NCBI GenBank assembly: GCA_964576745.1 | Contig: CAZNUY010000003.1 | Span: forward strand, 1 to 54,037 | Length of the DNA: 54,037 bases | Origin: an uncultured Candidatus Saccharibacteria bacterium | GTDB taxonomy: Bacteria > Patescibacteriota > Minisyncoccia > Phycocordibacterales > PALSA-1337 | Direction: 5' to 3' | In this document: piece after piece, positions 18,501-34,222 of the stretch | Layout: each line of letters opens with the position of its first letter | How positions within the stretch are numbered: the stretch's first letter is position 1 | Translations under genes and position numbers: made by a program | Notes under the pieces: model-generated | What the model was told of the DNA's origin: nothing | Seen by the model: the letters and a program-made list of their open reading frames with translations, nothing else | The model's database searches: none

Positions 18501-18584
18501 AGCTTGGCTTTCAGAACTTACTAAACAAAGAGATTATATCAATTTGGCTCTAACTAATCTATCAGGTATTCTTGCTGAATAAAG

Positions 18585-18606
18585 TTCACGACGTTCACAC
18601 GTTCAC
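18585..18606 (+). repeat. three TTCAC iterons (spacing 9 and 8 bp)
   Basis: TTCAC at 18585, 18594 and 18602. Confidence 0.6.
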
Positions 18607-19109
18607 TCTATTTTTCTCCTATCTTTGTTTTTCTTTCTTTCCTCTCTTCGGATTCGTCTCTCTTCAGCTTTTTTCTCTTCTGCCTCTTTTCGAGCCTTCA
18701 TCTCTTCAGGAGTGACTACTCGCATATAATTCATGATCTTATAACCCTTTAAGTGCTCGAATGGATCAACGAATCTGTACCACTTTTCCATATGGGTATA
18801 ATCCTTTCCATCTTTTTCTCTCGTCTTAACCGAGTGAGATTTCAATAAATCTTTTGGTGGTAAAAAGTCCTTGTTGTCTTCAATGAGAAAGAGTTGTGCG
18901 TGAGTGCCCTTACCGTAGTAACTTATAGTTCGAGCTTTGAGAATACCTTCTTTAACCCATCTTCGAATGGTAACTGCCTTGAGCTCAAAGTTATATTCCA
19001 AATCAAATTCGCTATACCAACTATCCTTATCCTTTGCGAGAGAAGCTGGAATCTCTCCTTCATCAATTGCTTTCTGACAAACAAGACACTTTATTCCATA
19101 TTCGTCATA
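18603..19109 (-). CDS. HTH (excisionase/MerR-like) DNA-binding segment with Lys/Arg/Glu-rich tail; same frame as 19110..19952 and separated from it only by TAG
   Basis: Motif AVTIRRWVKEGILKA. The frame is open from 19109 down to TGA at 18603. The ORF track starts at a TTG at 19001, and no ATG lies upstream. Confidence 0.5.
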   Translation of the reverse strand, partial: YDEYGIKCLVCQKAIDEGEIPASLAKDKDSWYSEFDLEYNFELKAVTIRRWVKEGILKARTISYYGKGTHAQLFLIEDNKDFLPPKDLLKSHSVKTREKDGKDYTHMEKWYRFVDPFEHLKGYKIMNYMRVVTPEEMKARKEAEEKKAEERRIRREERKKNKDRRKIE

Positions 19110-19952
19110 CTAATTGTCACCTTCATTCATAATAGAGTGACCGCAAATAAAACAACGATAACCACGACCTTCGAGATGGAACCCTTTAGGGTTAGCCTTT
19201 AATTTCTCCTGAAGTATTTTTTCTTTCTCCTCCCATTCTTTCACAATTTTCCCCATGTTTTCCAATCTCCATTTTTGATCCCGATATTCGGCACCTTGTT
19301 CATCTGTTAGACAGAAACGATCCCGATCCTTAGCAAAATCAGCATCAAATTCATCATCCTTTTCTTTTGCGTGTCTCCATTCGTATTCATCAGTTTCTGT
19401 GTAGCCACATTTCGGGCAAGAGTTAGTTGTTATAACCTTTTTATCATCATCTTTTCTCCTTGTTTCGAGAGGAGTGCTGCAATGCAGACATAGTATGGGT
19501 TTAACTCTCCACTCTTCACCATCTGAAAAGAAAGCTCTGCGAGGAAGACATTTATTTGGGCAGTCATACATAAATAAAACACGATCAGGTTTTTCAAGAT
19601 CGGTCCAAAGGTCTTTGAATGTCACCTTCATTCTATTTCGGCATGTAAGGCAACGAATATCTTCTGGTGCTTGAGCTGAAGCGTAAAAATCATCTCTCTG
19701 CTTATCTTTATCCATCCATTCCTGAATAGTTTTATTTCTATTTAAATATCTTTCTCCCTTCGTAATATTAAGAGATAGTTTTTTAGCATAAGCTTCAGCA
19801 GCAGCTGCATCTTCTTCACTAATTGAGCCATCTTCAGGAAGAGGCTTTTTTGATTCCGTAAAGAATTTTTCTATACGCCGACACTCTTCTACAGTGTGTC
19901 TGTCATAGAGATCGGAATAATATTGTTTAGATTTAAGATGTGGTTCTGACAT
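19110..19952 (-). CDS. multi-zinc-ribbon protein (three CxxC...CxxC units, the last one completed only downstream of its TAG stop)
   Basis: 280-aa ORF; CLTCRNRM..CPNKC, CLHCSTP..CPKCG, CFICGHS then TAG. Confidence 0.6.
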   Translation of the reverse strand: MSEPHLKSKQYYSDLYDRHTVEECRRIEKFFTESKKPLPEDGSISEEDAAAAEAYAKKLSLNITKGERYLNRNKTIQEWMDKDKQRDDFYASAQAPEDIRCLTCRNRMKVTFKDLWTDLEKPDRVLFMYDCPNKCLPRRAFFSDGEEWRVKPILCLHCSTPLETRRKDDDKKVITTNSCPKCGYTETDEYEWRHAKEKDDEFDADFAKDRDRFCLTDEQGAEYRDQKWRLENMGKIVKEWEEKEKILQEKLKANPKGFHLEGRGYRCFICGHSIMNEGDN

Positions 19953-19957
19953 AGAAT

Positions 19958-22810
19958 TTATTCATCTTCTTGTTCTTTTTTCAGCATTTTCCTCTTCTCC
20001 AATTCTGCCTGATGTTCTTTCTCACTAGCTGCTATCATCTGTTTTAAGATAGTCACTGTTTCGGCAATAAATCTCTGACCTTTCTTTGAGCTAGTATTGT
20101 TAGCAAGAGCCTCTATTTCATTCACCTTGGCTTGCCATGCCTTACCAAAAAGATTTTCGCCAGCTGGGCCACTTACTGATCCAACATTTGTAAGATACCC
20201 TTTAAGAGTTCGTATGAGGTCTTTGTCATCTGTGATTTCAACTAGCCTGAGACAAAATTGAATATCAATGGAATCAAATTTCGGTAGTAATTCAATAGCT
20301 TCTGCAATTTGTTTTTTCTTACCACTCAACACGAGATCGTAGATAATTTCTTGAGCAATAGAAGGTGCAAACGAATCCAGAAGGCTGGAAAGGTTGTAGC
20401 TAAAGACAGAAATCTTTCCTAAATGCTTTTTACTCCAAACTTTTACTATTTCTTTTACTTTGTCAGTATTCTTTTCAAAGAGTGGTTTAAGTTCGTCTGC
20501 GTGTCTCGGAATAGCCTGATAATAGTGACCTAATTCAAAGGTTTTTGAGGATTTCTGTTTTTCAAGCATTCTTCGGTAGAGGACATCCATAAATAGCTCA
20601 AAATCAACTTCCCCTAAGGCAATTAAAATTTCAGTACCGTGGTGTTCTAAGGAAGAGACCTTTACTAATAGACCAGCAAAATGTTCTAAATCCACTTTTG
20701 GCCAGTCGGATAATGAGAGCATTCCGTCTCTTAAAGCAAAATCTATGGTCATCAAATTTAAAATAACCTGGTCTGGATAATTTTTCAGTAACTCAAGAAA
20801 AATCTTTCGACATTTTCCGGGGTCTAAGGCTGATATTCTGAAAACCCCATATAGGACATAGTAAAAATTTGGATATTTTAAGGGGAGCGCTTCAAAATCA
20901 AATTTATCCTTTCTAAATATAATATTTTCAAGAATTGAAATGTCTTCAGGAGAAACTTTGTCTACATTTCCTTTATCTAAATATATAAAGGAGGCAGCGA
21001 TAGCGACTGCAAAGTCAGGCTGCTTCTTGTGTGATAGAAAATCGATAACCGAATCTAGGATTGCACGATTGCCGCTATTTCTAATTCCACCTATGAGCTC
21101 TGCCAATTTTGTAGATAAAGGCAGATTACTTTGGACCGACTGCTCGATTAGTTTTTTTGCTACATTAGGTTTAGTTTTACCTACATCAACTAGAAAAGTC
21201 TTAAAATTGACGAGACCGTTTAATGGTTCCAACTCGCTCATTTTTGCAACATCAGACAAATCTTTCAGGTACTTTTTCAGATTCCCTTCCGAAATTGTTT
21301 GTACATGCTTGTCTATGGCTTCTTTCCATTCTCGATCTACTGTTTGATAGTCGTCTTCGTCTCGCAATTGAAAAGCTTGGCCGATGAGAAGACGATATAA
21401 ACCATATATTCCTTTATCATTTTGAAGTCTTTCTAAAAGCTTTCCAACTGGTGGAACGCTACCGCCATGAACCCTCTTCATCCAACCGAGCTGCTGCTCT
21501 AGCTTTAAGACAATTGGAGATTCAACAATAATTTTATTATCTTCGAGGATAATATTTGTAATTTCTTTGATGAAAAATCTCACATCACCTTCAATCATTT
21601 TCTGCGCTTTTTCTTTTTGTTCATCAGGACCAATTTCATGAGATACATGAGTAGAGTGCAGTATTATCTCTAAAATCTTCAGTTTATCCTGAACCTTAGC
21701 TATCTTGAACATAGAGATAAGTTCAATAACCACTTTTCTTCTAAATTTTGCTAAGTAGGGACTTGCATTTAGTGGTCCTCGGTGGAAAACCATCGTAATA
21801 TCATCTCTCATTGAAGTCCCATCATATGAAGGTTCAAGTAAAGATTCGTAAACAATTTTTAGGGTATCAATGTTGCTGATCTTTTCCTTGATGTCATGGG
21901 TTTCCAGAAAAGCATGCACAGCTTCTTGAGGACCATATCCCAAAGAAATTAACGCATGGTAATTATATGCGGCAACATGCTTCATTTTCTCAATAAGTAC
22001 ACTCTGAATGTTTTTATTAATTTCTATTTTGGAAAAAGAATATAAAAGATTAAAAACCTCCTTTGGCTCGAAGTATCGAATTACATCAAGAGCTTCTATG
22101 TATACTTTAAGCACTCTCTCATTTGCTGGAGAATTGTTTGCTTCAGATAGTAACTTTTGTCCGATAGATAGAATATGTGGAACAACTAGATGTTCACCTT
22201 TAACAGAACGATAATGAGCTAATTTCTCAAGGGTTTTTATTCTTTCAATTAGCACTTCTGGAGCAAGATAACCAACATCTTTTTGGTCAGCAAGTAAATC
22301 CTTTATAAGATGATCGTTCGTTTTATTGAAATGATGATTACATATGTCTTTCCACTCCTTGAGATAAGAATCGTCACCCTTCTTTATAATATTTTTCCTA
22401 TTAAAATATAATCTCTTTTCAGCAGGAACATTGCTTTTACCTAATATAGTTGCAGCTGTCTCTTTGCTTAAATAAAGCCAATACGCTACTTGTTCCGTAG
22501 GGTCAACTGCAATAAATAAAAGTGGTAAGTTGGAGGAAGCTGCATAAGCTAGCAGTTTGGATGGACATAATGAGAATGGGGCTTTAGTTTTCTTGGCATA
22601 GGAAAGCGGCTTGATTTGCACTTCCAAATTCAAACCAGTTGTTTCTCTTTTTGAGTTGAGGAGTTGTAAGTGTCCATCTGTATCCGGATATGTATCATCT
22701 CCCGATGTGAGCTTTTCTATTAACTTGTCAGATAAAATCTGCTTGAGAACGCCAATTTCCTGTTTTTCTATTGCTTTGCTTTTTGAGTAAACTGAGCGTT
22801 TGATTGCCAT
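19958..22810 (-). CDS. 950-aa protein: N-terminal DUF4365-like PD-(D/E)xK nuclease fold plus about 800-aa alpha-helical repeat region
   Basis: YPDTDGHLQL ... LEVQIKPLS ... PLLFIAVDPTEQVAYWLYL pattern. The rest is helical with no recognisable motif. Confidence 0.55.
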   Translation of the reverse strand: MAIKRSVYSKSKAIEKQEIGVLKQILSDKLIEKLTSGDDTYPDTDGHLQLLNSKRETTGLNLEVQIKPLSYAKKTKAPFSLCPSKLLAYAASSNLPLLFIAVDPTEQVAYWLYLSKETAATILGKSNVPAEKRLYFNRKNIIKKGDDSYLKEWKDICNHHFNKTNDHLIKDLLADQKDVGYLAPEVLIERIKTLEKLAHYRSVKGEHLVVPHILSIGQKLLSEANNSPANERVLKVYIEALDVIRYFEPKEVFNLLYSFSKIEINKNIQSVLIEKMKHVAAYNYHALISLGYGPQEAVHAFLETHDIKEKISNIDTLKIVYESLLEPSYDGTSMRDDITMVFHRGPLNASPYLAKFRRKVVIELISMFKIAKVQDKLKILEIILHSTHVSHEIGPDEQKEKAQKMIEGDVRFFIKEITNIILEDNKIIVESPIVLKLEQQLGWMKRVHGGSVPPVGKLLERLQNDKGIYGLYRLLIGQAFQLRDEDDYQTVDREWKEAIDKHVQTISEGNLKKYLKDLSDVAKMSELEPLNGLVNFKTFLVDVGKTKPNVAKKLIEQSVQSNLPLSTKLAELIGGIRNSGNRAILDSVIDFLSHKKQPDFAVAIAASFIYLDKGNVDKVSPEDISILENIIFRKDKFDFEALPLKYPNFYYVLYGVFRISALDPGKCRKIFLELLKNYPDQVILNLMTIDFALRDGMLSLSDWPKVDLEHFAGLLVKVSSLEHHGTEILIALGEVDFELFMDVLYRRMLEKQKSSKTFELGHYYQAIPRHADELKPLFEKNTDKVKEIVKVWSKKHLGKISVFSYNLSSLLDSFAPSIAQEIIYDLVLSGKKKQIAEAIELLPKFDSIDIQFCLRLVEITDDKDLIRTLKGYLTNVGSVSGPAGENLFGKAWQAKVNEIEALANNTSSKKGQRFIAETVTILKQMIAASEKEHQAELEKRKMLKKEQEDE

Positions 22811-22887
22811 ACATTATTTTTACATATACATTCATAGTCTTAGTTAAAGCGGATTTTAGCATTTTTTAGGCTTAAAATAAAGAAAAA

Positions 22888-22917
22888 TCGCACCTGCTGC
22901 CGAAGCTACAGGTGCGA
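22888..22917 (-). terminator. intrinsic terminator after purM (symmetric hairpin with A/T runs on both sides)
   Basis: tcgcacctg ... caggtgcga form a 9-bp stem, flanked by aaaaa and attttt. Confidence 0.6.
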
Positions 22918-22942
22918 GTATTTTTCAGGAACTTGTTCGAAC

Positions 22943-24046
22943 TCATCGAACCGCCAGCGTCTCGCCCGCGTACTCGAGACCTTTCGGCTTGATGACGACT
23001 TTCTTGTCGCCGTTCTCGATGTGCCCGGCAGCCAGAGCCTTGAGGCCGAGCTGTTGCGTCACCCCGAGAACTTTCTCGACGTCGGCTTCCGCCACGTAGA
23101 GCGCAAACCCTGCGCCCATGTTCAGGTTGCCGTAGGCTTCCTGATCATCGACCGGTCCATGCTCCTGGATGAAGCTGAAGATCGGAAGCTGCGTCGGAAG
23201 CGTGTCGATCATGTAGGCGAAAGGCTGCGTTGCCCGCATGAGCTTGCGCCAGCCGTGGCCGGTGACGTTCACCGCGTAGTGAATATCAACGCCTGCATCG
23301 AGGCAGTCTTCGACGAGGCCGACGTAAATGTGTGTCGGATCGAGAAGTGCTTCGCCGTAGCTTCGGCCGTCAGAGAGTTTCGTGAGATACCCGTCCGGCA
23401 GCTTATCGGCAATCTTGCGCGCGAGCGTGAGCCCGTTCGCATGGATACCCGAGCTTTCGACAATCACGATCATGTCGCCGTGAGCGATCTTACCGATGAT
23501 CAGACGCTCCTTCGGCTTCACGATTCCAATCGCGGAACCGGAGAGCACAACGGCTTCCGGAACCACGACACCCTTGAGAGTCGGCGTTTCGCCTCCGCCC
23601 CAAGTGCAGCGGGCCAAGTCGCAGGCTTTCTTCCAGCCGTTGACCAGATCGCGGGTGCGGTTCTCGTCATTGAACCAGTCTGAGACGCCGACTGCGAGAT
23701 GCATGGCGACCGAGAGAGGCAATGCGCCGAGTGTCACCAGGTCATTCACGATCATGGCGACCGTGCACTGAGCGACATGGTCGTAATACGATTTGCCGGT
23801 GAGGGCATACATCGCGTCCGCGACCAGGTTCTTGGTGCCGAGGCCTTCCTCCACATGAGCGAAGTAACTTTTAGCCGCTTCGATCAGGTAGGCGCTTTCG
23901 CCTCGTGAGGGTTCGAACTCCCGGAACTCGCCGCCATTGAGACGAGCGATGTTGCCAGCTGTTTCTCGCGCAGCAAGCTGCGCCATCCGTTTGAATGGGT
24001 CCATGGCATCGTAATTGACACCGGTACCCGCGTAGGTCATGTTCAT
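22943..24046 (-). CDS. purM: AIR synthase (PurM) family, phosphoribosylformylglycinamidine cyclo-ligase-like
   Basis: 367-aa G+C-rich ORF; EEGLGTKN (DGVGTK-like) and PurM-type N- and C-terminal domain layout. It is a divergent subtype. Confidence 0.7.
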   Translation of the reverse strand: MNMTYAGTGVNYDAMDPFKRMAQLAARETAGNIARLNGGEFREFEPSRGESAYLIEAAKSYFAHVEEGLGTKNLVADAMYALTGKSYYDHVAQCTVAMIVNDLVTLGALPLSVAMHLAVGVSDWFNDENRTRDLVNGWKKACDLARCTWGGGETPTLKGVVVPEAVVLSGSAIGIVKPKERLIIGKIAHGDMIVIVESSGIHANGLTLARKIADKLPDGYLTKLSDGRSYGEALLDPTHIYVGLVEDCLDAGVDIHYAVNVTGHGWRKLMRATQPFAYMIDTLPTQLPIFSFIQEHGPVDDQEAYGNLNMGAGFALYVAEADVEKVLGVTQQLGLKALAAGHIENGDKKVVIKPKGLEYAGETLAVR

Positions 24047-24090
24047 GTGTTGCTCCTTTTCTTTTGTGAAATGTTCAGATGCTGAACGTG

Positions 24091-24118
24091 ATATTACTTA
24101 AAATTTGACAAAAAGCAA
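24091..24118 (-). promoter_or_regulatory. sigma-70-like promoter of purM (TTGCTT, 16 nt, TAATAT)
   Basis: Plus strand atatta at 24091-24096 and aagcaa at 24113-24118. The whole module is nearly identical to the one upstream of purD. Confidence 0.55.
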
Positions 24119-24129
24119 ATAAAATAGGC

Positions 24130-24150
24130 CTACGATTTTTTAGGTCGTAG
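24130..24150 (-). terminator. weak hairpin terminator after purD
   Basis: ctacga/tcgtag stem with an A/T-rich loop and flank. Confidence 0.3.
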
Positions 24151-24177
24151 ACCATTTTGAGTTGGAGCAACACAACT

Positions 24178-25494
24178 TCATACTCCGAGAGACTTCGCGC
24201 CGATGTCCTTGCGATAATGCGCTCCTTCGAAATGAATGCACTCGACTCCGTTGTAAGCGTGATCGAGAGCTTCCTGAAGAGTTGCACCGAGTGCGGTGAC
24301 ACCGAGAACACGACCACCGGCAGTGACGAGCTGGCCATCAGCCTGTTTGGTCCCTGCATGGAACACGACGACGCCCGGAAGAATCTCGGCGTTATCGATG
24401 CCTGTGATCGGCAAACCTTTCTTGTAGTCGGGCGACGGATAGCCGCCAGACGCCATCACGATGCAGGCAGCGAAGCCGGGGTTCCACTCGACGTTAATCT
24501 CATGGAGCCGTCCATCAGCACATGCCTCGAAGATGTCGAGCAGATCAGTTTTCAGAAGTCGCATGTAAACCTGGGTCTCCGGATCACCGAATCGGGCGTT
24601 GAACTCGAGCACCGACAGGTCCCATTCGGGAACTGCTGGTGGATCGTTTCTCCGGACTTTGAGTCCCGGATAGAGTAAGCCAACAAACGGCGAGCCTTTT
24701 CCACGAAGACCTTCGAGGATCGGACCGACAATCTGTTCACCTGCAGCATCGTGGCTCACGAACCACGGCACCGGAGCAATCGTTCCCATTCCGCCGGTAT
24801 TCGAACCCTTGTCGCCGTCGAAGACAGGCTTATGGTCCTGAGCCGAGGGAAACATCTTGAACGACTTACCGTCGCAGAAGGCGTGGATTGAAACTTCTTG
24901 TCCTCCAGCGAACTCCTCGACAATGACTTCATCGCCGGCGCTTCCATGGAGCTTCTTGACCATGATCTCATCGAGAGCTTGTTCGGCTTCTGCGAGATCG
25001 TGGCAGACGTATGCCCCCTTTCCGAGAGCGAGACCCGATGCCTTCACCACGATCGGCAAACCTTGGTAGGCCGCGAAGTGGCGTCGGACATGTTCGAGTG
25101 CCTGCGTATGGTCAGTGTAAACATCGAAGTGCGAGGTTGGCACGCCTGAATCTTTCATGAGGCGTTTCGAGAACACCTTCGATGCTTCGATCTGCGCTGC
25201 GGCTTTGCTCGGACCGAAGATCTTCAGTCCTTTTGCCTGGAACGCATCAACGATGCCGAGCGCCAGCGGATCATCCTGACCCACAATGGTGAAATCAATT
25301 CCTTCCTTGAGTGCGAAGGCCAAGAGACCGTCCACATCCGTCGCTTTCACTGGGACGTTTTCTGCGATCTGTGCCGTGCCAGCATTGCCGGGGGCAACGT
25401 AGAGTTTTCCGAGACGTGGCGACTGATGAAGCTTCCATCCAATGGAATGCTCACGACCGCCACCACCAACGAGTAGTACTTTCATCTGGTTCAT
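24178..25494 (-). CDS. purD: phosphoribosylamine-glycine ligase (GAR synthetase)
   Basis: 438-aa ORF; MKVLLVGGGGREHSIGWKL N-terminus and ATP-grasp layout. Confidence 0.9.
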   Translation of the reverse strand: MNQMKVLLVGGGGREHSIGWKLHQSPRLGKLYVAPGNAGTAQIAENVPVKATDVDGLLAFALKEGIDFTIVGQDDPLALGIVDAFQAKGLKIFGPSKAAAQIEASKVFSKRLMKDSGVPTSHFDVYTDHTQALEHVRRHFAAYQGLPIVVKASGLALGKGAYVCHDLAEAEQALDEIMVKKLHGSAGDEVIVEEFAGGQEVSIHAFCDGKSFKMFPSAQDHKPVFDGDKGSNTGGMGTIAPVPWFVSHDAAGEQIVGPILEGLRGKGSPFVGLLYPGLKVRRNDPPAVPEWDLSVLEFNARFGDPETQVYMRLLKTDLLDIFEACADGRLHEINVEWNPGFAACIVMASGGYPSPDYKKGLPITGIDNAEILPGVVVFHAGTKQADGQLVTAGGRVLGVTALGATLQEALDHAYNGVECIHFEGAHYRKDIGAKSLGV

Positions 25495-25542
25495 GACTTG
25501 GTTCTCCTTTTCTTTTGTTAGAGGTTCTGTGTTCTGAGGCTG

Positions 25543-25570
25543 ATATTACCTAAAATTTGACAAAAGGCAA
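25543..25570 (-). promoter_or_regulatory. sigma-70-like promoter of purD (TTGCCT, 16 nt, TAATAT)
   Basis: Plus strand atatta at 25543-25548 and aggcaa at 25565-25570. Confidence 0.55.
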
Positions 25571-25585
25571 TAAAAATTTGAAAAG

Positions 25586-25613
25586 TTGCAAAAAAGATAT
25601 TTTTAATTAATAT
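25586..25613 (+). promoter_or_regulatory. sigma-70-like promoter of purN (TTGCAA, 16 nt, TAATAT), divergent from the purD promoter
   Basis: ttgcaa at 25586-25591 and taatat at 25608-25613; RBS taggagatagg before the ATG at 25653. Confidence 0.5.
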
Positions 25614-25652
25614 TCTTTTTAGATCATCAAACCAAATATAGGAGATAGGCAC

Positions 25653-26324
25653 ATGAGCAAATCGAAAGTTCTTGTCTTCGCGTCAGGGTCGGCTGAAGGT
25701 GGCGGATCGGGCTTTGAAAAGCTCATCCTTGCTTCCCGAGGTGGACCACTTGATGCAGACATCGTCGCAGTTGTTTCAAATCATGCAAACGGAGGAGTGC
25801 GTGCTCGGGCAGATAAGCTCGGCGTTCCCTTCCTCCACTTCCCGAAGCCATGGACCGCAGAAGCGTATCAAAAGTTCGCCTCCGAATCCGGTGCAGACTT
25901 CTTTGCGCTCTCCGGCTGGCTGAAATTGGTGACCGGACTCGATCCGGTTACCCGATTCAATTCACGGACTGTCTTCAACATTCATCCCGGACCACTTCCG
26001 GACTTTGGTGGTCCGGGACTGTATGGGCATCATGTCCACGAAGCAGTCATCGCAGCTTTCGGCCGGCGCGAGATCACACACTCGGCTGTTTCGATGCATT
26101 TCGTCACCGGCGAATATGATCGCGGACCGGTTTTCTTCCGGTGCAACGTCAAAATCAACGGAGACGATACAGCCGACACGATTGGCACCCGGGTCAATCA
26201 GCAGGAGCATATCCATCAGCCGAAAATCACCAGCATGGTGGTAAACGGTCTGATCAAGTGGGATGGAATCAATCCCGATTCGCTCCAAGTTCCGGAAGGA
26301 TACTCGGTCGAATGCTTCGCCTGA
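25653..26324 (+). CDS. purN: phosphoribosylglycinamide formyltransferase
   Basis: 223-aa ORF; VLVFASGS...NIHPGPLPDFGG formyltransferase motifs. Confidence 0.85.
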   Translation: MSKSKVLVFASGSAEGGGSGFEKLILASRGGPLDADIVAVVSNHANGGVRARADKLGVPFLHFPKPWTAEAYQKFASESGADFFALSGWLKLVTGLDPVTRFNSRTVFNIHPGPLPDFGGPGLYGHHVHEAVIAAFGRREITHSAVSMHFVTGEYDRGPVFFRCNVKINGDDTADTIGTRVNQQEHIHQPKITSMVVNGLIKWDGINPDSLQVPEGYSVECFA

Positions 26325-26345
26325 TTTACGCGCATGCGCATCATC

Positions 26346-26380
26346 ATGAGCGGTTCTGAAAAACGGACCGCTCATTTTTT
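26346..26380 (+). terminator. intrinsic terminator after purN
   Basis: tgagcggt / accgctca form an 8-bp stem followed by tttttta. Confidence 0.6.
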
Positions 26381-26402
26381 ATTTGAAATTAAGCAATTTT
26401 TG

Positions 26403-26430
26403 TTGCTTAAAGTCTAATTTTGAGTAATAT
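26403..26430 (+). promoter_or_regulatory. sigma-70-like promoter of purL (TTGCTT, 16 nt, TAATAT)
   Basis: ttgctt at 26403-26408 and taatat at 26425-26430. Confidence 0.5.
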
Positions 26431-26506
26431 GACGACTAGATAGCACCTCTCGGAGGTGCATTGTTTTTTGTCATCCCAAACGTAAACAACAAAAGAAGGA
26501 GAAGCC

Positions 26507-29500
26507 ATGATCTATCGCATGTATCGCCAGATGGACAGCGGCCTAGAACTTGGTTTCTACGTCGAAACCACTGGCCAGCTGTCCGAGCCGGAGCTTCAAC
26601 AGCTCCAATGGCTCATCGCAGAAACGTTCGAGCCGGCAAAGACCGGACTTGAACCCAGCCTCACAGCAGACGTTGTCGAGATTGGACCCAGGCTCTCGAT
26701 CGAGACTCCGTTCTCATCGAATGCCGTCTCTATCTGCCAGGCCATGGGGCTCGGCAGAATCACGCGCATCGAGCGCACGCATCGCTACGCCGGCAACGGC
26801 AGCTCGGACCACATTCTCAAGACTCGTCTTGATCGGATGACCGAGCAGCACTACCCCAGCGGGATCGAGACCTTTGACACCGGCGTCTCGCCGGATGATG
26901 TCCGAGTGATCGATCTCATTGGCCGCGGAAAGGCAGCTCTCGAGGAGATGAACAGCGCACTTGGCCTCGGCATGGATGCCAGAGACCTCGAGTACTATCA
27001 GCATCTCTTTGCGGAAGTCCTGAAAAGGAATCCGACCGACGTCGAACTATTCCAGCTGGGCAATGCCAACAGCGAGCACAGCCGGCACTGGTACTTCAAA
27101 GGTCAGATCGTCATCGACGGAACGCCGATGCAGGAGACTCTGTTCGAGATCGTTCAGCGACCGCTGAAAAATCTCGGCAGCGAAAACTGCAGCCTCGTTG
27201 CCTTCAGGGACAACGCCGGTGTGATCCAGGGATTTGGCACGCGTCTTATCCTTCCGGTCACGCCGGGCAAGCCTTCGGAAATGCGGCTCATGGAAAAGGT
27301 GATTCACATCACCTGCACCGCTGAGACGCACAACCATCCCACGTTCGTCGCACCGTTCCCCGGAGCTCAGACAGGAGCCGGCGGTCGGATACGCGACAAC
27401 AGCGCAGTCGGACGCGGCGGTATCGTCGGCATCGGTGTCGCCGGTTACTTTGTCGGAAACCTTTTCATTCCGGGTCACGAGATTCCTGGAGAGGCTATCG
27501 GCAAGGATAAGCCGTCGAAGTACGCTTCGCCGCTTTCGATCTTGATCGAGGGCAGCAACGGCGTGTCGAGCTACGGCAACCAGTTCGGCGAGCCTCTCAC
27601 ACTCGGCTTCACCAGAACCTACGGTCAGATGATCGGCAAAGAATGGCGCGAGCCACGCAAGCCGATTCTCTACAGCGGTGGCGTCGGGCATCTGTTCGAC
27701 GGGCATACTGCGAAGGAGACATCTGAAGTTGGAATGCTCATCGTGCGCATCGGCGGTCCTGCCTATCCCATCGGGGTCGGCGGCGGCTCAGCCTCAAGCA
27801 TGATGCAGGGCCAGAACACCGAGACGCTTGATTTCAACTCCGTTCAACGCGGTAACGCAGAGATGGAGAATCGTGCGAACCGAGTCATTCGGGCCTGTGT
27901 TGAGATGGGAGACAGCAATCCCATTTCGAGCATTCACGATCAAGGCGCTGGTGGTCCGAGTAATGTCCTTACGGAGTTGCTTGAGCCACTTGGTGGCAAG
28001 ATCAGCATTCGCGGTATCGTACTTGGTGACAAGACGATGTCCGTCCTCAAAATCTGGAGCGCCGAATTCCAAGAAGGATACGGACTCCTGATCAGGCCGG
28101 AGCAGATCGAGCTTTTCAAGTCGATCTGCAAGCGCGAGCGCGTCAACTGCGAAGTCCTCGGAGAAATCGACGGAAGCGGAAACGTTGTCGTTGAAGACTC
28201 CCTCAACGGGACAACGCCCGTAAGTCTCAACCTGGAGCAGATTCTCACGAACATGCCCCAGAAGACGTTCGAGTCAAATCGGCGGACCGAAGGCCTCAAG
28301 CCTCTGGACCTGCCGGACGTCACAGTCGCCGAAGCGCTTGAAAAAGTGTTCAGGCTTCCCAGCGTCGGCTCGAAAGGGTTCCTCGTTCACAAGGTGGACC
28401 GAAGCGTCACTGGGCTTGTATCGCAGCAGCAATGCTGCGGGATCGCCCAGATTCCAATCGCCAATGTAAGCGTGAATGCTCAGAGCCATTTCGGTTTGAG
28501 CGGAAGCGCCTCTGCAGTCGGCGAACAGCCAGTGAAGATGTTGATCGATCCGAAAGCTGGAGCTCGAATGGCGGTGGCAGAAATGTTCACCAACATGGCC
28601 TCGGCGCGGATCAGCGGTATCGGAGACATTCGATGCCGTGCAAACTGGATGTGGCCTGCGAAGTTACCACACGAAGGTGCCTTACTCTATGACGCTGCGG
28701 TTGCTATGTCTGACCTCATGGTTGGGCTCGGCATCGCAGTCGATGGCGGAAAGGACAGCCTTTCGATGGCTGCGACGATTTCGGGAGAGCTCGTAAAGGC
28801 TCCCGGAAGTTTGGTGATTCTCGGATACGCACCCGTGTCTGACATTACCAAGAAGGTCACGCCGGACATCAAAAAGCCCGGCGCTAGCAGTCTCGCATTG
28901 ATCGATCTTGGTCAGGGCAAAAATCGCCTCGGCGGTTCAGCTCTGGCTCAGGCATTCAACCAGCTCGGCGATAAGTCGCCTGACGTTGAAAATCCCAAGC
29001 TCCTCAAGAACGCGTTTCTTGCGGTGCAGCAGATGATCGGCGAAGGGTTGATTCTGTCTCTGCATGATCGAAGCGACGGCGGCCTCATAACCGCAGTAGC
29101 TGAGATGTGCATGGCGAGCCGGTGCGGATTCAATGTGAGCATCCCTCACGCTGCAGAAGCTCTGGCCGTCCTCTTTGGCGAGGAACCCGGGTTCGTTATT
29201 GAACTCGAGACTGTAAACGAAAAGCGGATTGTTGAAATCTGCGAATCGTTCGAAGTGCCGATCTCCACGATCGGTATCACCCTCGACAGCACATCATGCG
29301 TCGTCGATGCAAAAGATGCCGGAGAACTGTTCAGAAGTACTGTGATGGAACTCCGGAGCTGGTGGGAAGCCACAAGCGCCAAGATCGAAGAGCTGCAGAT
29401 GAACTCTGCGTGTGCCGAAGAAGAATACTCTGGTCACGAGGACCAGCTTCCCGGCATCGGTACGGCTCCGTCGTATCAGCTCTCATTCGCTCCAGTGGAA

Positions 29501-30331
29501 ACGCTTCCGGAAGTTTTGGAAGCGTCGGACAAGCCTTGCGTGGCAGTTTTACGCGAGGAAGGCACCAACGGCGACCGAGAAATGCTGGCTGCCTGTGCAG
29601 CTGCCGGTTTTGCTCCATGGGAAGTCACGATGAGTGATCTCCTTGAAGGCAGGATCGATCTGGATCAGTTCCAGGGCATCATCTTTGCCGGAGGGTTCTC
29701 CTACATGGACGTGTTCGACAGTGCAAAAGGCTGGGCAGGAACAATTCTTTTCAACGAGAAGTTGAGGGAGATGTTCAACCGTTTCTACGCCCGCGAGGAT
29801 ACGTTCTCGCTCGGCGTGTGCAACGGCTGTCAGCTGATGGCGCTGCTCGGATGGGTTCCCTGGAAAGGAATCGCCGGTGAAAAGCAGCCGAGATTCGTTC
29901 ACAACACTTCTGGCCGGTTTGAGTCTCGATGGGTGCAGGTGGAAGTTCTACCTAGCCCGTCGGTGCTTCTTGCCGGCATGGAAGGATCGAGGATCGGCGT
30001 GTGGGTCGCTCATGGTGAAGGTCTGCTGGTCTACCCAGATCAGTCGATCGCGCAGGAAGTTGCAGAGCGCAAGCTCTCTCCTCTCGCATACCTTGATCCG
30101 CACGGCAATCGGACGGAAGCATATCCGTACAATCCGAACGGCTCGCCGCTGGGGATTACGGCTCTGTGCTCTCCGGACGGGCGCCATCTTGCGATGATGC
30201 CTCATCCAGAACGTTGTTTCCGTTTGTGGCAATGGCCTTGGAAGCCAAACTCATGGAAAAGCCTCGAGGCTTCCCCATGGCTCCGAATGTTTCAGAACGC
30301 CAGACAATGGTGCATGGAACACCGGGCCTAG
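26507..30331 (+). CDS. purL: single-chain (large) phosphoribosylformylglycinamidine synthase
   Basis: 1274-aa ORF; TAETHNHPT and DNSAVGRGG synthetase motifs; C-terminal glutaminase GVCNGCQLM and MPHPER. Confidence 0.93.
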   Translation: MIYRMYRQMDSGLELGFYVETTGQLSEPELQQLQWLIAETFEPAKTGLEPSLTADVVEIGPRLSIETPFSSNAVSICQAMGLGRITRIERTHRYAGNGSSDHILKTRLDRMTEQHYPSGIETFDTGVSPDDVRVIDLIGRGKAALEEMNSALGLGMDARDLEYYQHLFAEVLKRNPTDVELFQLGNANSEHSRHWYFKGQIVIDGTPMQETLFEIVQRPLKNLGSENCSLVAFRDNAGVIQGFGTRLILPVTPGKPSEMRLMEKVIHITCTAETHNHPTFVAPFPGAQTGAGGRIRDNSAVGRGGIVGIGVAGYFVGNLFIPGHEIPGEAIGKDKPSKYASPLSILIEGSNGVSSYGNQFGEPLTLGFTRTYGQMIGKEWREPRKPILYSGGVGHLFDGHTAKETSEVGMLIVRIGGPAYPIGVGGGSASSMMQGQNTETLDFNSVQRGNAEMENRANRVIRACVEMGDSNPISSIHDQGAGGPSNVLTELLEPLGGKISIRGIVLGDKTMSVLKIWSAEFQEGYGLLIRPEQIELFKSICKRERVNCEVLGEIDGSGNVVVEDSLNGTTPVSLNLEQILTNMPQKTFESNRRTEGLKPLDLPDVTVAEALEKVFRLPSVGSKGFLVHKVDRSVTGLVSQQQCCGIAQIPIANVSVNAQSHFGLSGSASAVGEQPVKMLIDPKAGARMAVAEMFTNMASARISGIGDIRCRANWMWPAKLPHEGALLYDAAVAMSDLMVGLGIAVDGGKDSLSMAATISGELVKAPGSLVILGYAPVSDITKKVTPDIKKPGASSLALIDLGQGKNRLGGSALAQAFNQLGDKSPDVENPKLLKNAFLAVQQMIGEGLILSLHDRSDGGLITAVAEMCMASRCGFNVSIPHAAEALAVLFGEEPGFVIELETVNEKRIVEICESFEVPISTIGITLDSTSCVVDAKDAGELFRSTVMELRSWWEATSAKIEELQMNSACAEEEYSGHEDQLPGIGTAPSYQLSFAPVETLPEVLEASDKPCVAVLREEGTNGDREMLAACAAAGFAPWEVTMSDLLEGRIDLDQFQGIIFAGGFSYMDVFDSAKGWAGTILFNEKLREMFNRFYAREDTFSLGVCNGCQLMALLGWVPWKGIAGEKQPRFVHNTSGRFESRWVQVEVLPSPSVLLAGMEGSRIGVWVAHGEGLLVYPDQSIAQEVAERKLSPLAYLDPHGNRTEAYPYNPNGSPLGITALCSPDGRHLAMMPHPERCFRLWQWPWKPNSWKSLEASPWLRMFQNARQWCMEHRA

Positions 30332-30354
30332 GGATATGTTCCAAAGCCAATCCT

Positions 30355-30392
30355 GACCCCTTGCGTAGCAATGCGCGAGGGGTCTTTTATTT
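30355..30392 (+). terminator. intrinsic terminator after purL
   Basis: gaccccttgcg / cgcgaggggtc form an 11-bp stem (one G-U pair) followed by ttttattt. Confidence 0.65.
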
Positions 30393-30416
30393 AGATTCAA
30401 TTATATTAAAGCGACA

Positions 30417-30430
30417 TTCACAACATTCAC
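30417..30430 (+). repeat. two TTCAC iterons, 9-bp spacing
   Basis: TTCAC at 30417 and 30426. Confidence 0.6.
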
Positions 30431-30559
30431 AGTACATGGGGAAATTTAGGGAAAAAAGTGCCAAAAAGGAGCTCTTTTTCGCTCTATTTGGCCTAGGAGT
30501 GCACCTATTTTCACCTTTTTGCACTAGCGATTTGGAAAATTGCTGATGTTGCTATAACA

Positions 30560-30582
30560 TTCACAATATTCACGATGTTCAC
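30560..30582 (+). repeat. three TTCAC iterons, 9-bp spacing
   Basis: TTCAC at 30560, 30569 and 30578 (acattcaca atattcacg atgttcacg). Confidence 0.7.
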
Positions 30583-31813
30583 GTCCGAGGCTCGGCAGAC
30601 TGCCTCTATGAAGATGAAAATGACCATGTTAATGACATATTTACCTGAATGGAAAATCTATCTATGGAGAAAACTTTTATTGGAAGAAGAGAGTAATTTT
30701 AATGATCCTATCCTGCTCACTAGGTTCGTATTCTTTACTGAAATAGAACAACGACAAGAAACACGTAAGCGTCTGCTGCACTCCATTGATAGCCTGAACA
30801 ATGCCAAAAACGCTGCTCTAGTAACTAGATCACCAATGCTGATTGCTGATGGCAATCACACATCTCATACCGACGCTTACTATTCCTCTTATCCAAAGAA
30901 AGTAGGCTTGGCTCTTATCGAATTAGCAGAAAGTGATCCTGTTGCAATAAAGATTGAGAAAATAAATCTAAAGAAGGGTGATAAAAACAAAGATGTTACC
31001 GTTTCTGAACTGAAAGAGTTTCTTACTCCCTCATCAGATGTAATTTCTTTTGAGTACCTACAACTCAAAATAAAACTTGATAAAAAGGCTCTTGAGAAAA
31101 GACTAGGCACCTATCTGGATGCCTTCAGGGAAGGTGCTCTCCTTGCTGGACCAGACATTCGTTATTACTTCTTTGAAAAGCAGAAAGAAGATATTACTCG
31201 GTCCCTTCAGAATATGGCTAAAAAGTATGGAAATAAGAACATCACATTCACTTTAGATGAATTGGCCAAGAAAGGTGGATGGTATCAAAGAGACGAAAGA
31301 AACTACCGTCCTTTTGAAACCCTTTTTACACTGGAAAAACTGGGAGAGCTTGAGATTCATGACCTAAGAAAACATGAGATCATTCTTTCATTGAAGAAAT
31401 ACCTTTCGGCCGAGACTAAACAGTCTGCAGCTGGACCATCTATTCAAAAATCAGCTATTGAATCCATAAAATCAATTACTTTCATCTCTGAAAATAAGAA
31501 AGCAGATAAGGTGTCTTCTTTCTATATCAATCACCACATTCACGATGTTCACAAAATGCAGCGTTTGAGTGGTGAGGTCCGCAAATTAGCCAGGGTTGCA
31601 GCTGGTGAAGAAGTACCTTTTGAGAAGCAGACCCATGACTATATAAACACAAACAAGAATTGCGTACTCTATCGCAATGGCAAATATAAGCTGACCAAGA
31701 TCATTGACGGTCACAGCAGACCTCTCAAAATCAGTCGTGGCATCGAAGTAGAAATTATTGATGACAAGGTATTTAAGCGAAGACTAGCTGCAGCCGATAA
31801 AAACTCTGCTTAA
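30575..31813 (+). CDS. hypothetical island protein; start uncertain (the annotated ATG lies inside the iteron array; a later Met run MKMKMTM is possible)
   Basis: 412-aa ORF with AT-rich, host-like composition and no recognised motif; contains an internal iteron cluster at 31530-31552. Confidence 0.5.
   Translation: MFTSEARQTASMKMKMTMLMTYLPEWKIYLWRKLLLEEESNFNDPILLTRFVFFTEIEQRQETRKRLLHSIDSLNNAKNAALVTRSPMLIADGNHTSHTDAYYSSYPKKVGLALIELAESDPVAIKIEKINLKKGDKNKDVTVSELKEFLTPSSDVISFEYLQLKIKLDKKALEKRLGTYLDAFREGALLAGPDIRYYFFEKQKEDITRSLQNMAKKYGNKNITFTLDELAKKGGWYQRDERNYRPFETLFTLEKLGELEIHDLRKHEIILSLKKYLSAETKQSAAGPSIQKSAIESIKSITFISENKKADKVSSFYINHHIHDVHKMQRLSGEVRKLARVAAGEEVPFEKQTHDYINTNKNCVLYRNGKYKLTKIIDGHSRPLKISRGIEVEIIDDKVFKRRLAAADKNSA
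31530..31552 (+). repeat. three (A/T)TCAC iterons, 9-bp spacing, inside a CDS
   Basis: ATCAC at 31530, TTCAC at 31539 and 31548. Confidence 0.5.
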
Positions 31814-31874
31814 AGCAAGCTTAATCTTGCCGAAAGCCTGAAATCCCTTACAGCAGGGGCTTTTTTGTTATTGC

Positions 31875-31902
31875 TTTAAGAGCTATTTAAGCGTGCTTTA
31901 AG
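31875..31902 (+). promoter_or_regulatory. three TTTAAG direct repeats at 11-bp phasing, candidate operator upstream of 31964
   Basis: TTTAAG at 31875, 31886 and 31897. Confidence 0.35.
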
Positions 31903-31963
31903 TTTATCTCCGGACCTACGATGTAAGCAGATTTTTGCGAAATCTTTTATCAAAAATAATTAA

Positions 31964-32248
31964 ATGCTTATGAGAAAACATGTAACCAAGGTCCCGTTAG
32001 ATGACAATGAAAAATATCTGTCGAATGACATTGATGTAGCAGTAACGCTGCTATGCAAAGGCTATACCCTCGAAGATATTAAACTTCTTACCAATAAAAA
32101 GGCTACTTTCGTATTCAAAGATCATCCAGCTATTAAGGCTGCAGTTGATGGCTTTTGGAGTAACCGGATAGAAGTCCATCCTCTTGAGTTTGCGAATATT
32201 CGCAAGAACTTAAAATCACGCATTTACGCAATGCAGAAAGATTACTAA
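31964..32248 (+). CDS. DUF5659-like small protein
   Basis: 94-aa ORF. The pattern LLCKGYTL..I......ATFVF.D...I..AV..FW........P.EF.N..K.LKSRIY recalls DUF5659 (from memory). Confidence 0.5.
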   Translation: MLMRKHVTKVPLDDNEKYLSNDIDVAVTLLCKGYTLEDIKLLTNKKATFVFKDHPAIKAAVDGFWSNRIEVHPLEFANIRKNLKSRIYAMQKDY

Positions 32249-32263
32249 ACCAAATAAACAAAA

Positions 32264-33634
32264 ATGTATATGAATAATTACGAAGAACGAAAAGATAGAC
32301 CTATCTTTAAAACTACACTTTTGACTGGTGATGCTCTCTACGAAATGGTATACAGTCCGGTCCAGAAGAAAAGCTCCTATATCAAAACGGACCGACTTGG
32401 ACATACGGAAAACCTGGAGGAAGTAGAACTTGATGGTTATAAATACAGACCCTTGCCGCCAACCTATACCCTTGTAGACAAAAAGATTATTCACTTCCCA
32501 TCAATGGCAGCTTCTTACGAAAGCGAGGAAGAGATCTTAAATGAAATCAGAATCTTCATTCATAAGTACTTGGATATTTCTGAAATCTTTGAGCAGATCG
32601 CTAGTTATTACGTGCTCTTTACCTGGCTATTTGATCGCTTTAATGAGGTCCCATATCTCCGAGCCATTGGTGACTTTGGAAGTGGCAAATCACGCTTTAT
32701 CCAAGCAATAGGCATGCTTTGCTATAAACCGATAATGACTTCAGGCGCTACTGGCAGCGCTCCAATTTTCAGAATCCTAAGCCAGATACAAGGCACTCTA
32801 GTCATGGATGAAGCAGATTTCAAGTTTTCGGATATGACTTCTGAAATGATTAAAATCTTGAACTCTGGGTATCAGAAAGGAACTGCTGTTATGCGATGTA
32901 ATCCAAAAACTTTTGATCCAGAAGCATTTGATGTGTATGGTCCTAAGATTATTGCTACTCGTGAGACGTTTTCTGATAAGGCTCTTGAGAGTAGATTCTT
33001 GGTTGAGGAAATGGGTGCAGGAAAATTAAGGACCGACATTCCGAGAACACTAGATGAGACGTTCTATTCTGAAGCTGAAGCAATTAGAAATAAGCTACTC
33101 ATGTGGAGACTGAAGAATTATTTTGCTCCAATCGAAAGACGAACAGAAATTATCGAGGGTATTCATCCTCGACTAAATCAGATCGTGATTCCTCTCATGT
33201 CCATCATCAAGAATGACACCATTCGAGAGCACCTAAAGACATTCATCATTAAATACAACAGTGAGTTAATAGCTGATCGAGGTCTTACGTGGGAAAGTGA
33301 TATTGTTTTTGCAATTCTCAAGATTGAGCACGAAACAGGAGCTAGTGAGGTTACAGTCAAAAAAATAACCGAGGAAGTGAATAAAGAAAGTGACATCACT
33401 GACGACACTCTCCAAGCCAGGAAAGTGGGCTGGTATCTTCGCTCCAAATTACAACTAAAGTCATACAGAGGCAGACACGGTTTTACTCTTTCTTTTAAGG
33501 TAAATCGTAAGCGATTGGATATGTGGAAGGAACGCTTCGGTATTACCGATGCAGATATTCGAGGTGAACAAGTGAATGTCGTGAACGATGTGAACGTGCA
33601 GGAAGAGATTAAGCCAGAAGAAATAGCATTTTAA
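32264..33634 (+). CDS. P-loop NTPase (possible replication/mobilisation helicase-type ATPase of the island)
   Basis: 456-aa ORF; Walker A GDFGSGKS and Walker B LVMDEADF; the C-terminus is encoded by inverted iterons. Confidence 0.6.
   Translation: MYMNNYEERKDRPIFKTTLLTGDALYEMVYSPVQKKSSYIKTDRLGHTENLEEVELDGYKYRPLPPTYTLVDKKIIHFPSMAASYESEEEILNEIRIFIHKYLDISEIFEQIASYYVLFTWLFDRFNEVPYLRAIGDFGSGKSRFIQAIGMLCYKPIMTSGATGSAPIFRILSQIQGTLVMDEADFKFSDMTSEMIKILNSGYQKGTAVMRCNPKTFDPEAFDVYGPKIIATRETFSDKALESRFLVEEMGAGKLRTDIPRTLDETFYSEAEAIRNKLLMWRLKNYFAPIERRTEIIEGIHPRLNQIVIPLMSIIKNDTIREHLKTFIIKYNSELIADRGLTWESDIVFAILKIEHETGASEVTVKKITEEVNKESDITDDTLQARKVGWYLRSKLQLKSYRGRHGFTLSFKVNRKRLDMWKERFGITDADIRGEQVNVVNDVNVQEEIKPEEIAF
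33564..33594 (-). repeat. four TTCAC iterons in inverted orientation (GTGAA on the plus strand), spacing 8, 9 and 9 bp
   Basis: GTGAA at 33564, 33572, 33581 and 33590. Confidence 0.6.
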
Positions 33635-33652
33635 AAACCTAACTTAAATTTT

Positions 33653-34177
33653 ATGGAAAACAATCAAAATAAAGGTGGTCCAAAAACTCCTGAAGGAAAA
33701 GCTGTATCAAAACTTAACGCTCTCAAACATGGAATTTTGAGCCAGGAAGTGATGGTTGAGGGAGAAGATGAGAATACTCTCAAAAGTCTTAGTGAAGCTC
33801 TTATAGACGAACTGAAGCCTGGAGGACCGATTGAAGAGATGTTGGTGGACCGAATTATCTCTAGCCTATGGCGACTACGCCGATCCGTATCGGCCGAGAG
33901 GAACGCAATGGAATATATCAAAAATGAAGGTTTTCTTCTGGCTGGAATTGATGGTGTTTTTGATCCAAAACAAGACGCTCGTATCAAAGCCAAGAATATG
34001 CTTACCCATGAAGGGATTGAGACAATCTTACGCTACGAGACAACTATTGAAAGAAGTCTCTTAAAAGCGCTGCATGAACTAGAAAGAATCCAGGCTAAGA
34101 GAAGTGGTAAAGACGTTCCTCTGCCATCTGTGCTGGATGTGAATATTGATAGTTCGTTTGGCAAAAACGACCTGTAA
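33653..34177 (+). CDS. hypothetical protein (N-terminal GGPKTPEGKAVSKLNALKHGILS motif)
   Basis: 174-aa ORF in the co-oriented island gene string. Confidence 0.5.
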   Translation: MENNQNKGGPKTPEGKAVSKLNALKHGILSQEVMVEGEDENTLKSLSEALIDELKPGGPIEEMLVDRIISSLWRLRRSVSAERNAMEYIKNEGFLLAGIDGVFDPKQDARIKAKNMLTHEGIETILRYETTIERSLLKALHELERIQAKRSGKDVPLPSVLDVNIDSSFGKNDL

Positions 34178-34222
34178 ATATGGAGAATCCTTAATGATTT
34201 CGGCAGAAATATTGAAATTGAT

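Follow-up and report, generated by a model that had tools for sequence, protein, structure and literature searches.

Our analysis of a 54,037-nucleotide (nt) stretch of DNA from an uncultured Candidatus Saccharibacteria bacterium (assembly GCA_964576745.1, contig CAZNUY010000003.1, positions 1–54,037; hereafter the window) identified an 18.4 kb island at positions 18327–36731 that is bounded by a perfect 22-nt direct repeat and carries four genes of de novo purine biosynthesis, purM, purD, purN and purL, in a G+C-rich block at 22927–30393. We consider it probable that these genes are a four-gene module in horizontal circulation among bacteria of the Candidate Phyla Radiation (also called Patescibacteria; hereafter CPR), carried here as cargo of a serine-integrase island at tRNA-Glu(CTC). 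Members of this radiation are usually portrayed as irreversibly reduced and as dependent on their hosts for nucleotides. No paper describing the pur module or the tRNA-Glu integrase family was found in the literature, and both appear to be undescribed.

The limits of the block were evident from base composition. In 1-kb windows the G+C fraction was 0.36–0.37 at 21–23 kb, 0.51–0.60 at 23–30 kb and 0.39 from 31 kb, and 200-nt windows placed the two steps at about 22.9 kb and 30.3–30.4 kb. An earlier reading of these letters without database searches (the sequence-only reading) had reported a jump at about 22935 and a fall after about 30392, and both steps were recovered; its figure of about 30% G+C for the flanks was slightly low, as the block has 51–60% G+C and the flanks 32–42%. 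Its description of the block as lying inside an AT-rich island did not hold, since the remainder of the island has ordinary host-like composition. G+C content at third codon positions (GC3) was 0.57–0.73 in the four pur genes compared with 0.24–0.43 in 22 other measured window genes, and because this contrast lies at synonymous sites the composition of the block is not a by-product of amino acid content. Three spacers within the block drop to 0.34–0.40 G+C, indicating that G+C richness is confined to the coding sequences. Long antisense open reading frames (ORFs) in the block are plausibly composition artefacts, as had been proposed.

Domain and NCBIfam profiles agreed with the earlier assignment of the four genes to glycinamide ribonucleotide (GAR) synthetase, GAR transformylase, single-chain formylglycinamidine ribonucleotide (FGAM) synthase and a protein of the aminoimidazole ribonucleotide (AIR) synthase family, which are together the enzymes for conversion of phosphoribosylamine (PRA) to AIR. 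By the established functions of their families, PurD converts PRA and glycine to GAR, PurN converts GAR to formyl-GAR (FGAR) with 10-formyltetrahydrofolate, PurL converts FGAR to FGAM with glutamine and ATP, and PurM converts FGAM to AIR. The purD gene (24178–25494, minus strand; step 2) scored 481 bits to TIGR00877 (cutoff 288) with GARS_N/A/C domains, and the large purL gene (26507–30331, plus strand; step 4) scored 1486 bits to TIGR01735 (cutoff 1123) with five Pfam domains including GATase_5, so that both products pass equivalog cutoffs with the expected domain architectures, PurL being a single chain of N-domain, linker, two AIRS-like halves and glutaminase domain. The purM gene (22943–24046, minus strand; step 5) matched AIRS and AIRS_C above Pfam gathering cutoffs and had purM as its best NCBIfam match, at 177 bits against a TIGR00878 cutoff of 236. 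Every top PDB match of its product was PurM (9.5e-33; residues 36–356), the thiL profile gave just 34 bits, many genomes show the gene in linkage with purL and its family is 78–94% identical within CPR; by best match and context the product is assigned as a divergent, CPR-specific PurM. The similarly divergent purN gene (25653–26324, plus strand; step 3) matched Formyl_trans_N above its Pfam cutoff at 6.6e-19 and had PurN as its best NCBIfam match, at 87 bits against a TIGR00639 cutoff of 150 and with PurU as the second-best family; its best PDB matches are PurN, and its 'NIHP' and 'D' align with the catalytic N-x-H and Asp positions. Matches of the pur genes to their families are full-length.

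The ratio of non-synonymous (dN) to synonymous (dS) substitution in the pur genes was 0.05–0.12, which points to strong purifying selection and to genes that are in use. In comparison to the canonical purD, purN, large purL and purM of the E. coli type, the window genes have the same domain architectures, while purM and purN differ as divergent CPR-specific forms. Their order also differs from that of the classical pur operon, as purM–purD is divergent from purN–purL and each gene has its own promoter and terminator.

Evidence that the block moves as a unit came from L093, a contig of a Patescibacteria metagenome-assembled genome (MAG; GCA_028865725.1) that has the same four pur genes in the same arrangement. 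Window positions 22927–30393 aligned by blastn to L093 positions 11117–3674 with 86.9% nt identity over 7495 nt, and the two sequences showed no similarity at all beyond this span, whose ends differ from the limits first noted for the block by 8 nt at the start (22935) and by 1 nt at the end (30392). On its left the L093 block is flanked by unrelated genes with GC3 of 0.29–0.35, in comparison to 0.57–0.70 in its pur genes, and on its right by a Trp-repressor-like gene and a tyrosine integrase. Across five genomes similarity ends directly after the purM and purL terminators, and in relatives the AT-rich spacers with promoters and ribosome-binding sites (RBS) are conserved along with the pur genes. 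On this sequence evidence the block is read as a discrete portable purine module of four genes, each a predicted complete transcription unit. The module is itself recombinant, as purD and purN (dS about 1.0 in comparison to L093) are older than purL and purM (dS 0.34–0.47). Genes with DUF1761 and RibD_C domains neighbour the pur genes of the window and of L092 and L093, but the proteins are not detectably related from locus to locus; a functional tie was considered, and the proximity was put down to coincidence.

Sequence relationships of the Pur proteins placed the donor within CPR. PurL has dozens of homologues at 60–90% identity, many of them labelled Wildermuth-, Andersen-, Kaiser-, Taylor- or Doudnabacteria or Patescibacteria, and labels of PurD and PurM homologues are likewise CPR. 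In a neighbour-joining tree the window PurL grouped with a Wildermuthbacteria sequence and those of L093, L003, L092 and L004. The nearest PurL sequences come without exception from CPR contexts; outside CPR, identity is highest in Alpha- and Deltaproteobacteria and Nitrospirota, at 53–61%. The pur genes are much more similar than the genomes carrying them. Between the window and L092, dS was 0.41 for PurL and 0.47 for PurM, compared with 48% amino acid identity, a dN of 0.47 and saturated dS for penicillin-binding protein 2 (PBP2); L090 shares 80% identity in PurD and 45% in MreB, and L010 shares 72% in PurL, as against 31–51% over eight proteins of the division and cell wall (dcw) cluster, LysRS and GreA and 39–51% over those of dcw and LysRS. 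L016 has PurL at 73–74%, RNase III at 78% and NusB-NUDIX at 74%, and as this closer relative has a more distant PurL than L092 and L093, the window PurL represents a separate, more recent acquisition. As measured by sequence divergence, these comparisons show a donor in another CPR lineage and, by the unsaturated dS, a recent transfer. A donor in a G+C-rich phylum outside CPR is contradicted by BLAST, the PurL tree and dS, all of which place the nearest pur relatives in other CPR bacteria.

The G+C richness of the pur genes recurs in these relatives. A GC3 excess of pur genes over their flanks, ranging from 0.01 to 0.33, was found in nearly every CPR locus examined, and solitary purD genes among housekeeping genes keep it (L088, 0.59 in comparison to 0.22–0.45; L090, 0.52 in comparison to about 0.28). 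In L004 and L005, where the host genes themselves reach a GC3 of about 0.55–0.58, the excess is close to zero, and lineages of this type are plausible sources of the pur genes. This pattern fits a spread from CPR lineages of about 50% G+C followed by varying degrees of amelioration. In L085 the purB gene beside purL has host-like GC3 (0.46 vs 0.43). Another contig, L008 (JBDRFJ010000038.1), was deposited as 'Pseudomonadota bacterium' and has CPR-type purM and purL 76–81% identical to those of the window, AT-rich flanks and a tRNA-Gln gene; it is likely mis-binned or mislabelled.

The island that holds the module in the window bears the marks of site-specific integration. Its left boundary, attL (18327–18348), is a displaced copy of the 3' end of tRNA-Glu(CTC), TTGTGACCCTACGGGGAGTCGA, and is identical to the 22-nt attR core at 36710–36731, in direct orientation. 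This is the only long perfect direct repeat of the region and has two window matches at up to three mismatches, compared with 0.00 expected; degenerate internal copies, which would be a sign of tandem islands, were sought within the window and none was found. The integration target, tRNA-Glu(CTC) at 36712–36784 on the minus strand (ARAGORN; Rfam tRNA, 60.6 bits), lies immediately downstream of the dcw-cluster Mur ligase gene (36824–38143). A regenerated tRNA with a displaced fragment is what integration into a tRNA gene typically leaves behind (PMC4383910). The adjoining gene (35049–36773, plus strand) encodes a large serine integrase of 574 amino acids (aa) with Resolvase, Recombinase and Zn_ribbon_recom domains (phrog_95 integrase, 3.4e-52), and its 3' end crosses the att core into tRNA-Glu in antisense. 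Residues R29, S31, D125, R126, S128 and R129 (DRxSRN) were invariant across six sequences, from which the catalytic motif is predicted to be intact. The integrase had no PDB sequence match, and no Phage_integrase (tyrosine) domain was found in the island proteins scanned. The mobile island proposed in the sequence-only reading is thus borne out by att repeats derived from the tRNA-Glu 3' end and by the adjoining serine integrase.

Targeting of tRNA genes by serine integrases is a minority case, and the relatives of this integrase form a family in which it is frequent. A scan of JGI metagenomes gave 246 relatives, of which 80 loci (L096–L175) were fetched. In about 36 of these some 55 nt at the 3' end of the integrase gene lie antisense to tRNA-Glu (CTC or TTC), a few in small subclades have tRNA-Ala, tRNA-Leu or tRNA-Arg as target instead, and in nine loci tRNA-Glu is followed by the same Mur ligase and dcw cluster. 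Many of the 80 share all or part of a core that encodes a DUF5659 protein, 456-aa, 174-aa, 191-aa and 95-aa proteins and the integrase. None carries pur genes, which identifies the pur module as variable cargo. The closest relative, L096, is 86.7% identical over 6376 nt (window 30417–36784) and lacks pur genes; its homology begins 24 nt past the end of the pur module, with other genes to the left. As these left genes differ and the left arm of the window island occurs in no relative, the island is a three-part mosaic of left arm (18349–22926), pur module (22927–30393) and core (30417–36731). L096 also has, at positions 982–1701, a different G+C-rich ORF (about 0.55–0.63 G+C in 100-nt steps), the remainder of its cargo region being AT-rich; elements of this family may thus often carry cargo of foreign composition. 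Two more distant relatives, L144 (1–55 / 7725–7779) and L170 (1–35 / 8957–8991), are contigs that start with the integrase 3' end and a copy of the att core, implying element sizes of 7.7 and 9.0 kb; such starts are expected if circular (attP) or tandem reads were merged with the integrated form, and they hint at attP or tandem junctions in these distant relatives only.

Other pur loci were also found beside tRNA genes. In L003 the ORF of an unrelated serine recombinase overlaps tRNA-Gln in antisense and purM–purL lies on the 3' side of the tRNA, in L004 a 6.9-kb recombinase element adjoining purL is delimited by a 20-nt tRNA-Gln repeat, and in L008 the distance from purL to tRNA-Gln and its fragments is 1.3 kb. 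In L010 and L087, purL–purM sits between the dcw Mur ligase gene and the 3' end of tRNA-Glu(CTC), which is the target used in the window, and no integrase is present.

The sequence of events that we favour can be stated as follows. Insertion of the island would have been the work of a large serine integrase, with the 3' end of tRNA-Glu(CTC), a short way downstream of the dcw cluster, as its site; the tRNA was regenerated and the displaced 22-nt fragment lies at the far end of the island, whose variable cargo region contains the pur module. The donor CPR lineage was probably more G+C-rich, at about 50%, and the pur coding sequences would not yet have drifted to the host's value of about 37%. 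The enzymes would serve the de novo pathway to inosine monophosphate (IMP), with purF, purE/K, purC, purB and purH located elsewhere in the genome.

Several observations weigh against this account. In the pur module itself there are neither terminal repeats nor a transposase, and its absence from all 80 related elements offers no guide to its route into the island. Neither an empty attB nor a circular attP junction was recovered, the related loci having all been selected via the integrase, and a search of about 10 kb at up to four mismatches gave no left-end repeat in the closest related elements. Accretion of separate insertions at the tRNA retains some weight, though no internal att remnant was seen. 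The persistence of GC3 excess in the single genes of L088 and L090 implies that islands are not the only route of spread, and some selective maintenance of pur-gene G+C may also contribute. Both purM and purN fall under NCBIfam equivalog cutoffs. Finally, the rest of the purine pathway was not observed in the visible part of the genome, which comprises about 64 kb (the window and about 10 kb beyond its right end), nor, with the exception of purB, was a further pur gene recognized in about 30 CPR neighbourhoods, all these stretches amounting to no more than a few percent of a genome.

This last point bears on the alternative that the four genes constitute a stand-alone partial pathway in a host lacking purF and steps 6–10, with the module making AIR or another intermediate, for example for the ThiC-dependent thiamine pyrimidine or for exchange with a host. 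The sequence-only reading had argued along these lines from the presence of exactly steps 2–5, and its statement that purF, purE, purK, purC, purB and purH are missing was correct to the extent that none occurs among the Pfam-scanned ORFs of the window. Only steps 2–5 travel together in the window and L093, and CPR bacteria have generally been described as being without nucleotide synthesis (PMC12455944, PMC7304191, PMC11809585). Against this, the same genes are dispersed in relatives, with purD alone in some, and purB (Lyase_1 and ADSL_C) abuts purL in three lineages (L085, L015 and L024); since the genes are scattered in relatives, their clustering in the window says little about the completeness of the pathway. 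One relative's contig also encodes orotidine monophosphate decarboxylase. No thiC domain was found among the Pfam-scanned window ORFs, in the 10 kb or so beyond, or in the annotated neighbourhoods. A motif screen for PurE, PurF, PurC, PurH and ThiC over 593 kb of CPR loci was blank, although it was insensitive, having missed known purB and remained nearly blank in 1.08 Mb of non-CPR controls. The proposal that the pathway stops at AIR to feed ThiC therefore rested on a 54-kb view.

The related argument, that CPR bacteria lack purine synthesis and that the block is striking for this reason, fared no better. The pur gene set is common in Patescibacteria, with hundreds of homologues at 60–94% identity, and the route from phosphoribosyl pyrophosphate (PRPP) to IMP (KEGG M00048) has been reported for the class Paceibacteria (PMC9166423). 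We regard a stand-alone partial pathway as, on balance, unlikely, also in the form of such a pathway carried by an auxotroph; the locus alone shows neither host auxotrophy nor a stop at AIR. A bolder version would have a self-sufficient PRA-to-AIR unit spreading among purine-auxotrophic CPR symbionts, either as a pathway split between symbiont and host or for an AIR-derived product, with its G+C actively maintained, a mobile pool extending across all CPR and tRNA-Glu elements as the general vehicle, and this combination we hold to be distinctly unlikely.

Vertical inheritance of ancestral pur genes, with G+C-rich codon usage held by selection and an incidental position in the island, can draw on the near-universal GC3 excess in CPR loci, including that of solitary purD among housekeeping genes, on the breadth of the main CPR PurL clade and on L016, in which PurL divergence equals that of neighbouring genes (dN 0.19 vs 0.18–0.20). 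It is nevertheless highly improbable, as selection on the proteins cannot explain pur dS values of 0.34–0.47 between genomes whose PBP2 proteins are 48% identical with saturated dS, and as the block has mosaic junctions with unrelated flanks and lies between att repeats. The range of the GC3 excess, from about 0 to 0.33, is that expected from unequal residence times. To an assembly chimera or a recent direct transfer from a G+C-rich donor outside CPR (e.g. Proteobacteria) we give next to no weight, as the sharp composition steps, the large single-chain PurL typical of Proteobacteria-type lineages and the non-CPR PurL identities of 53–61% are outweighed by recovery of the block with both flanks in seven contigs from ENA, NCBI and Logan assemblies made with different assemblers and samples, by AT-rich, host-like block spacers, by nearest relatives (86–94% aa and 87–89% nt identity) that all lie in AT-rich CPR contexts and by CPR-specific divergent purM and purN, so that this alternative is already largely refuted. 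The chimerism that the sequence-only reading had wished to see excluded at the block ends is accordingly unlikely, with the junctions present in several assemblies and the same block in the independent MAG contig L093; neighbouring genes of the organism also occur in further samples.

Returning to the horizontally transferred module in a tRNA-Glu island, several known systems provide points of comparison. In SCCmec-type islands a large serine recombinase directs site-specific insertion into a conserved housekeeping gene at its 3' end, direct repeats of about 15–20 bp flank the island and the cargo is variable and adaptive. The window island is alike in its serine-recombinase insertion, flanking repeats and variable cargo, whereas SCCmec has rlmH/orfX as target and CcrAB as recombinases in place of a tRNA gene and a single integrase, and is unrelated in lineage and cargo. 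Cyanophages carry purM, purN and purC as auxiliary metabolic genes (AMGs), likewise subsets of the de novo purine genes on a mobile element; the window genes are instead resident chromosomal cargo under purifying selection, and no phage structural or replication genes were found among the ten island proteins compared with PHROGs. Genomic islands integrated at tRNA genes (Islander, PMC4383910) show the same intact tRNA at one end with a displaced 3' fragment repeat at the other, and the same position of the integrase beside the tRNA with variable cargo distal to it. Their usual integrase is of the tyrosine type, in contrast to the large serine recombinase, the ORF running antisense into the tRNA and the CPR host seen here. 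The tycheposons of Prochlorococcus (bioRxiv 10.1101/2020.12.28.424599) are also cargo elements at specific tRNA genes of a streamlined genome that carry metabolic and nutrient genes, a minority have large serine recombinases and each integrase clade is specific to one tRNA. They are unrelated in sequence to the window island, in which no replication genes were recognized and the cargo is for purine biosynthesis rather than nutrient uptake. By analogy, an island with metabolic cargo such as this one would be closest in concept to the tycheposons.

If our preferred account is right, core biosynthetic genes move between distant CPR lineages as ready-to-express units with promoter and terminator, and one route at least passes through an integrative island that a large serine integrase directs to a tRNA gene. 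This would supply a concrete mechanism by which purine synthesis came to be patchily distributed among CPR bacteria, and would mean that reduced genomes can regain biosynthetic genes. Metabolic inference from MAGs and contamination filters may drop such G+C-deviant blocks. Additionally, the integrases form an abundant family whose attB is defined (tRNA-Glu), and are a possible genetic tool for CPR bacteria.

Within the block, an AT-rich promoter/RBS cassette upstream of purM (copy A, 24048–24125, minus strand) is part of a repeat of about 80 nt and is 83–84% identical to a second cassette upstream of purD (copy B, 25499–25577, minus strand; G+C 0.34–0.40), which sits inside the divergent purD/purN control region (25495–25652). 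Copy A is conserved together with purM in L005/L083, L085, L092 and L093, and in part (to 24096) in L007. The two copies bracket purD, and three-gene genomes with purM–purN–purL (L083, L085) hold a single cassette where the window has purD and two, which suggests that purD may have been gained or lost via recombination between the cassettes. In genomes of this three-gene type purD is placed alone elsewhere. Intrinsic terminators were predicted after purN (26346–26375) and after purL (30355–30384), the latter conserved in five genomes. In L092 and L093 the purM terminator hairpin (window 22884–22930) is replaced in situ by one that differs in sequence, conservation being of structure and not of sequence.

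Beyond the pur module, the left arm of the island has genes for 132-aa, 280-aa and 950-aa proteins (18603–22810, minus strand), which are host-like in GC3 (0.27–0.30) and absent from the 80 related elements. The 950-aa protein (19958–22810) has a DUF4365/REase-like N-terminus (PADLOC Aga_REase, 4e-7) followed by about 800 residues without a match, and may be a defence gene product. Just inside attL, a G+C-rich non-coding stretch (18349–18500, plus strand) is strongly structured, with a minimum free energy of -80.6 kcal/mol compared with -60.8 for shuffled sequences (z = -5.06); it had no Rfam match, the Rfam search of the island returning tRNA only, and could be an attP-arm structure or a small RNA. 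The integrative-element core (30417–36709, plus strand) encodes a 412-aa protein, the DUF5659 protein (31964–32248), the 456-aa, 174-aa, 191-aa and 95-aa proteins and the integrase. PHROG and PADLOC searches gave no function for the core proteins other than the integrase, and PHROGs on ten island proteins (left arm and core; pur proteins not scanned) returned the integrase and one weak Lar-like match only. A prophage with the pur genes as AMGs was considered and rejected, as there were no phage structural, packaging or lysis genes in that set and neither PurL nor the 456-aa core protein had viral-contig relatives. A motif with tandem TTCAC half-sites, ATTCACRAYRTTCAC, occurs at 17686, 18584, 30416, 30559, 30568, 31538 and 33572 (minus strand), or seven times compared with 0.04 expected. 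The copies lie mostly in spacers of the island core, with one 640 nt outside attL upstream of a PEMT-like gene, and the motif may be a regulator-binding or promoter element.

Outside the island the window encodes cellular housekeeping functions, including glyceraldehyde-3-phosphate dehydrogenase, LepA, MurJ, class II ribonucleotide reductase and the MraZ-MraW-FtsI-Mur ligase genes, together with LysRS, GreA, PBP2, MreC/MreB, SMC, RNase III and NusB. An IS200-like Y1 transposase gene (41895–42503) lies between MraZ and LysRS, within an otherwise conserved dcw/LysRS/GreA/PBP2 order. To the left of the island, positions 14557–15837 encode a 426-aa protein in which a SLOG (LDcluster4/Lysine_decarbox-like) domain is fused to a small-domain methyltransferase.

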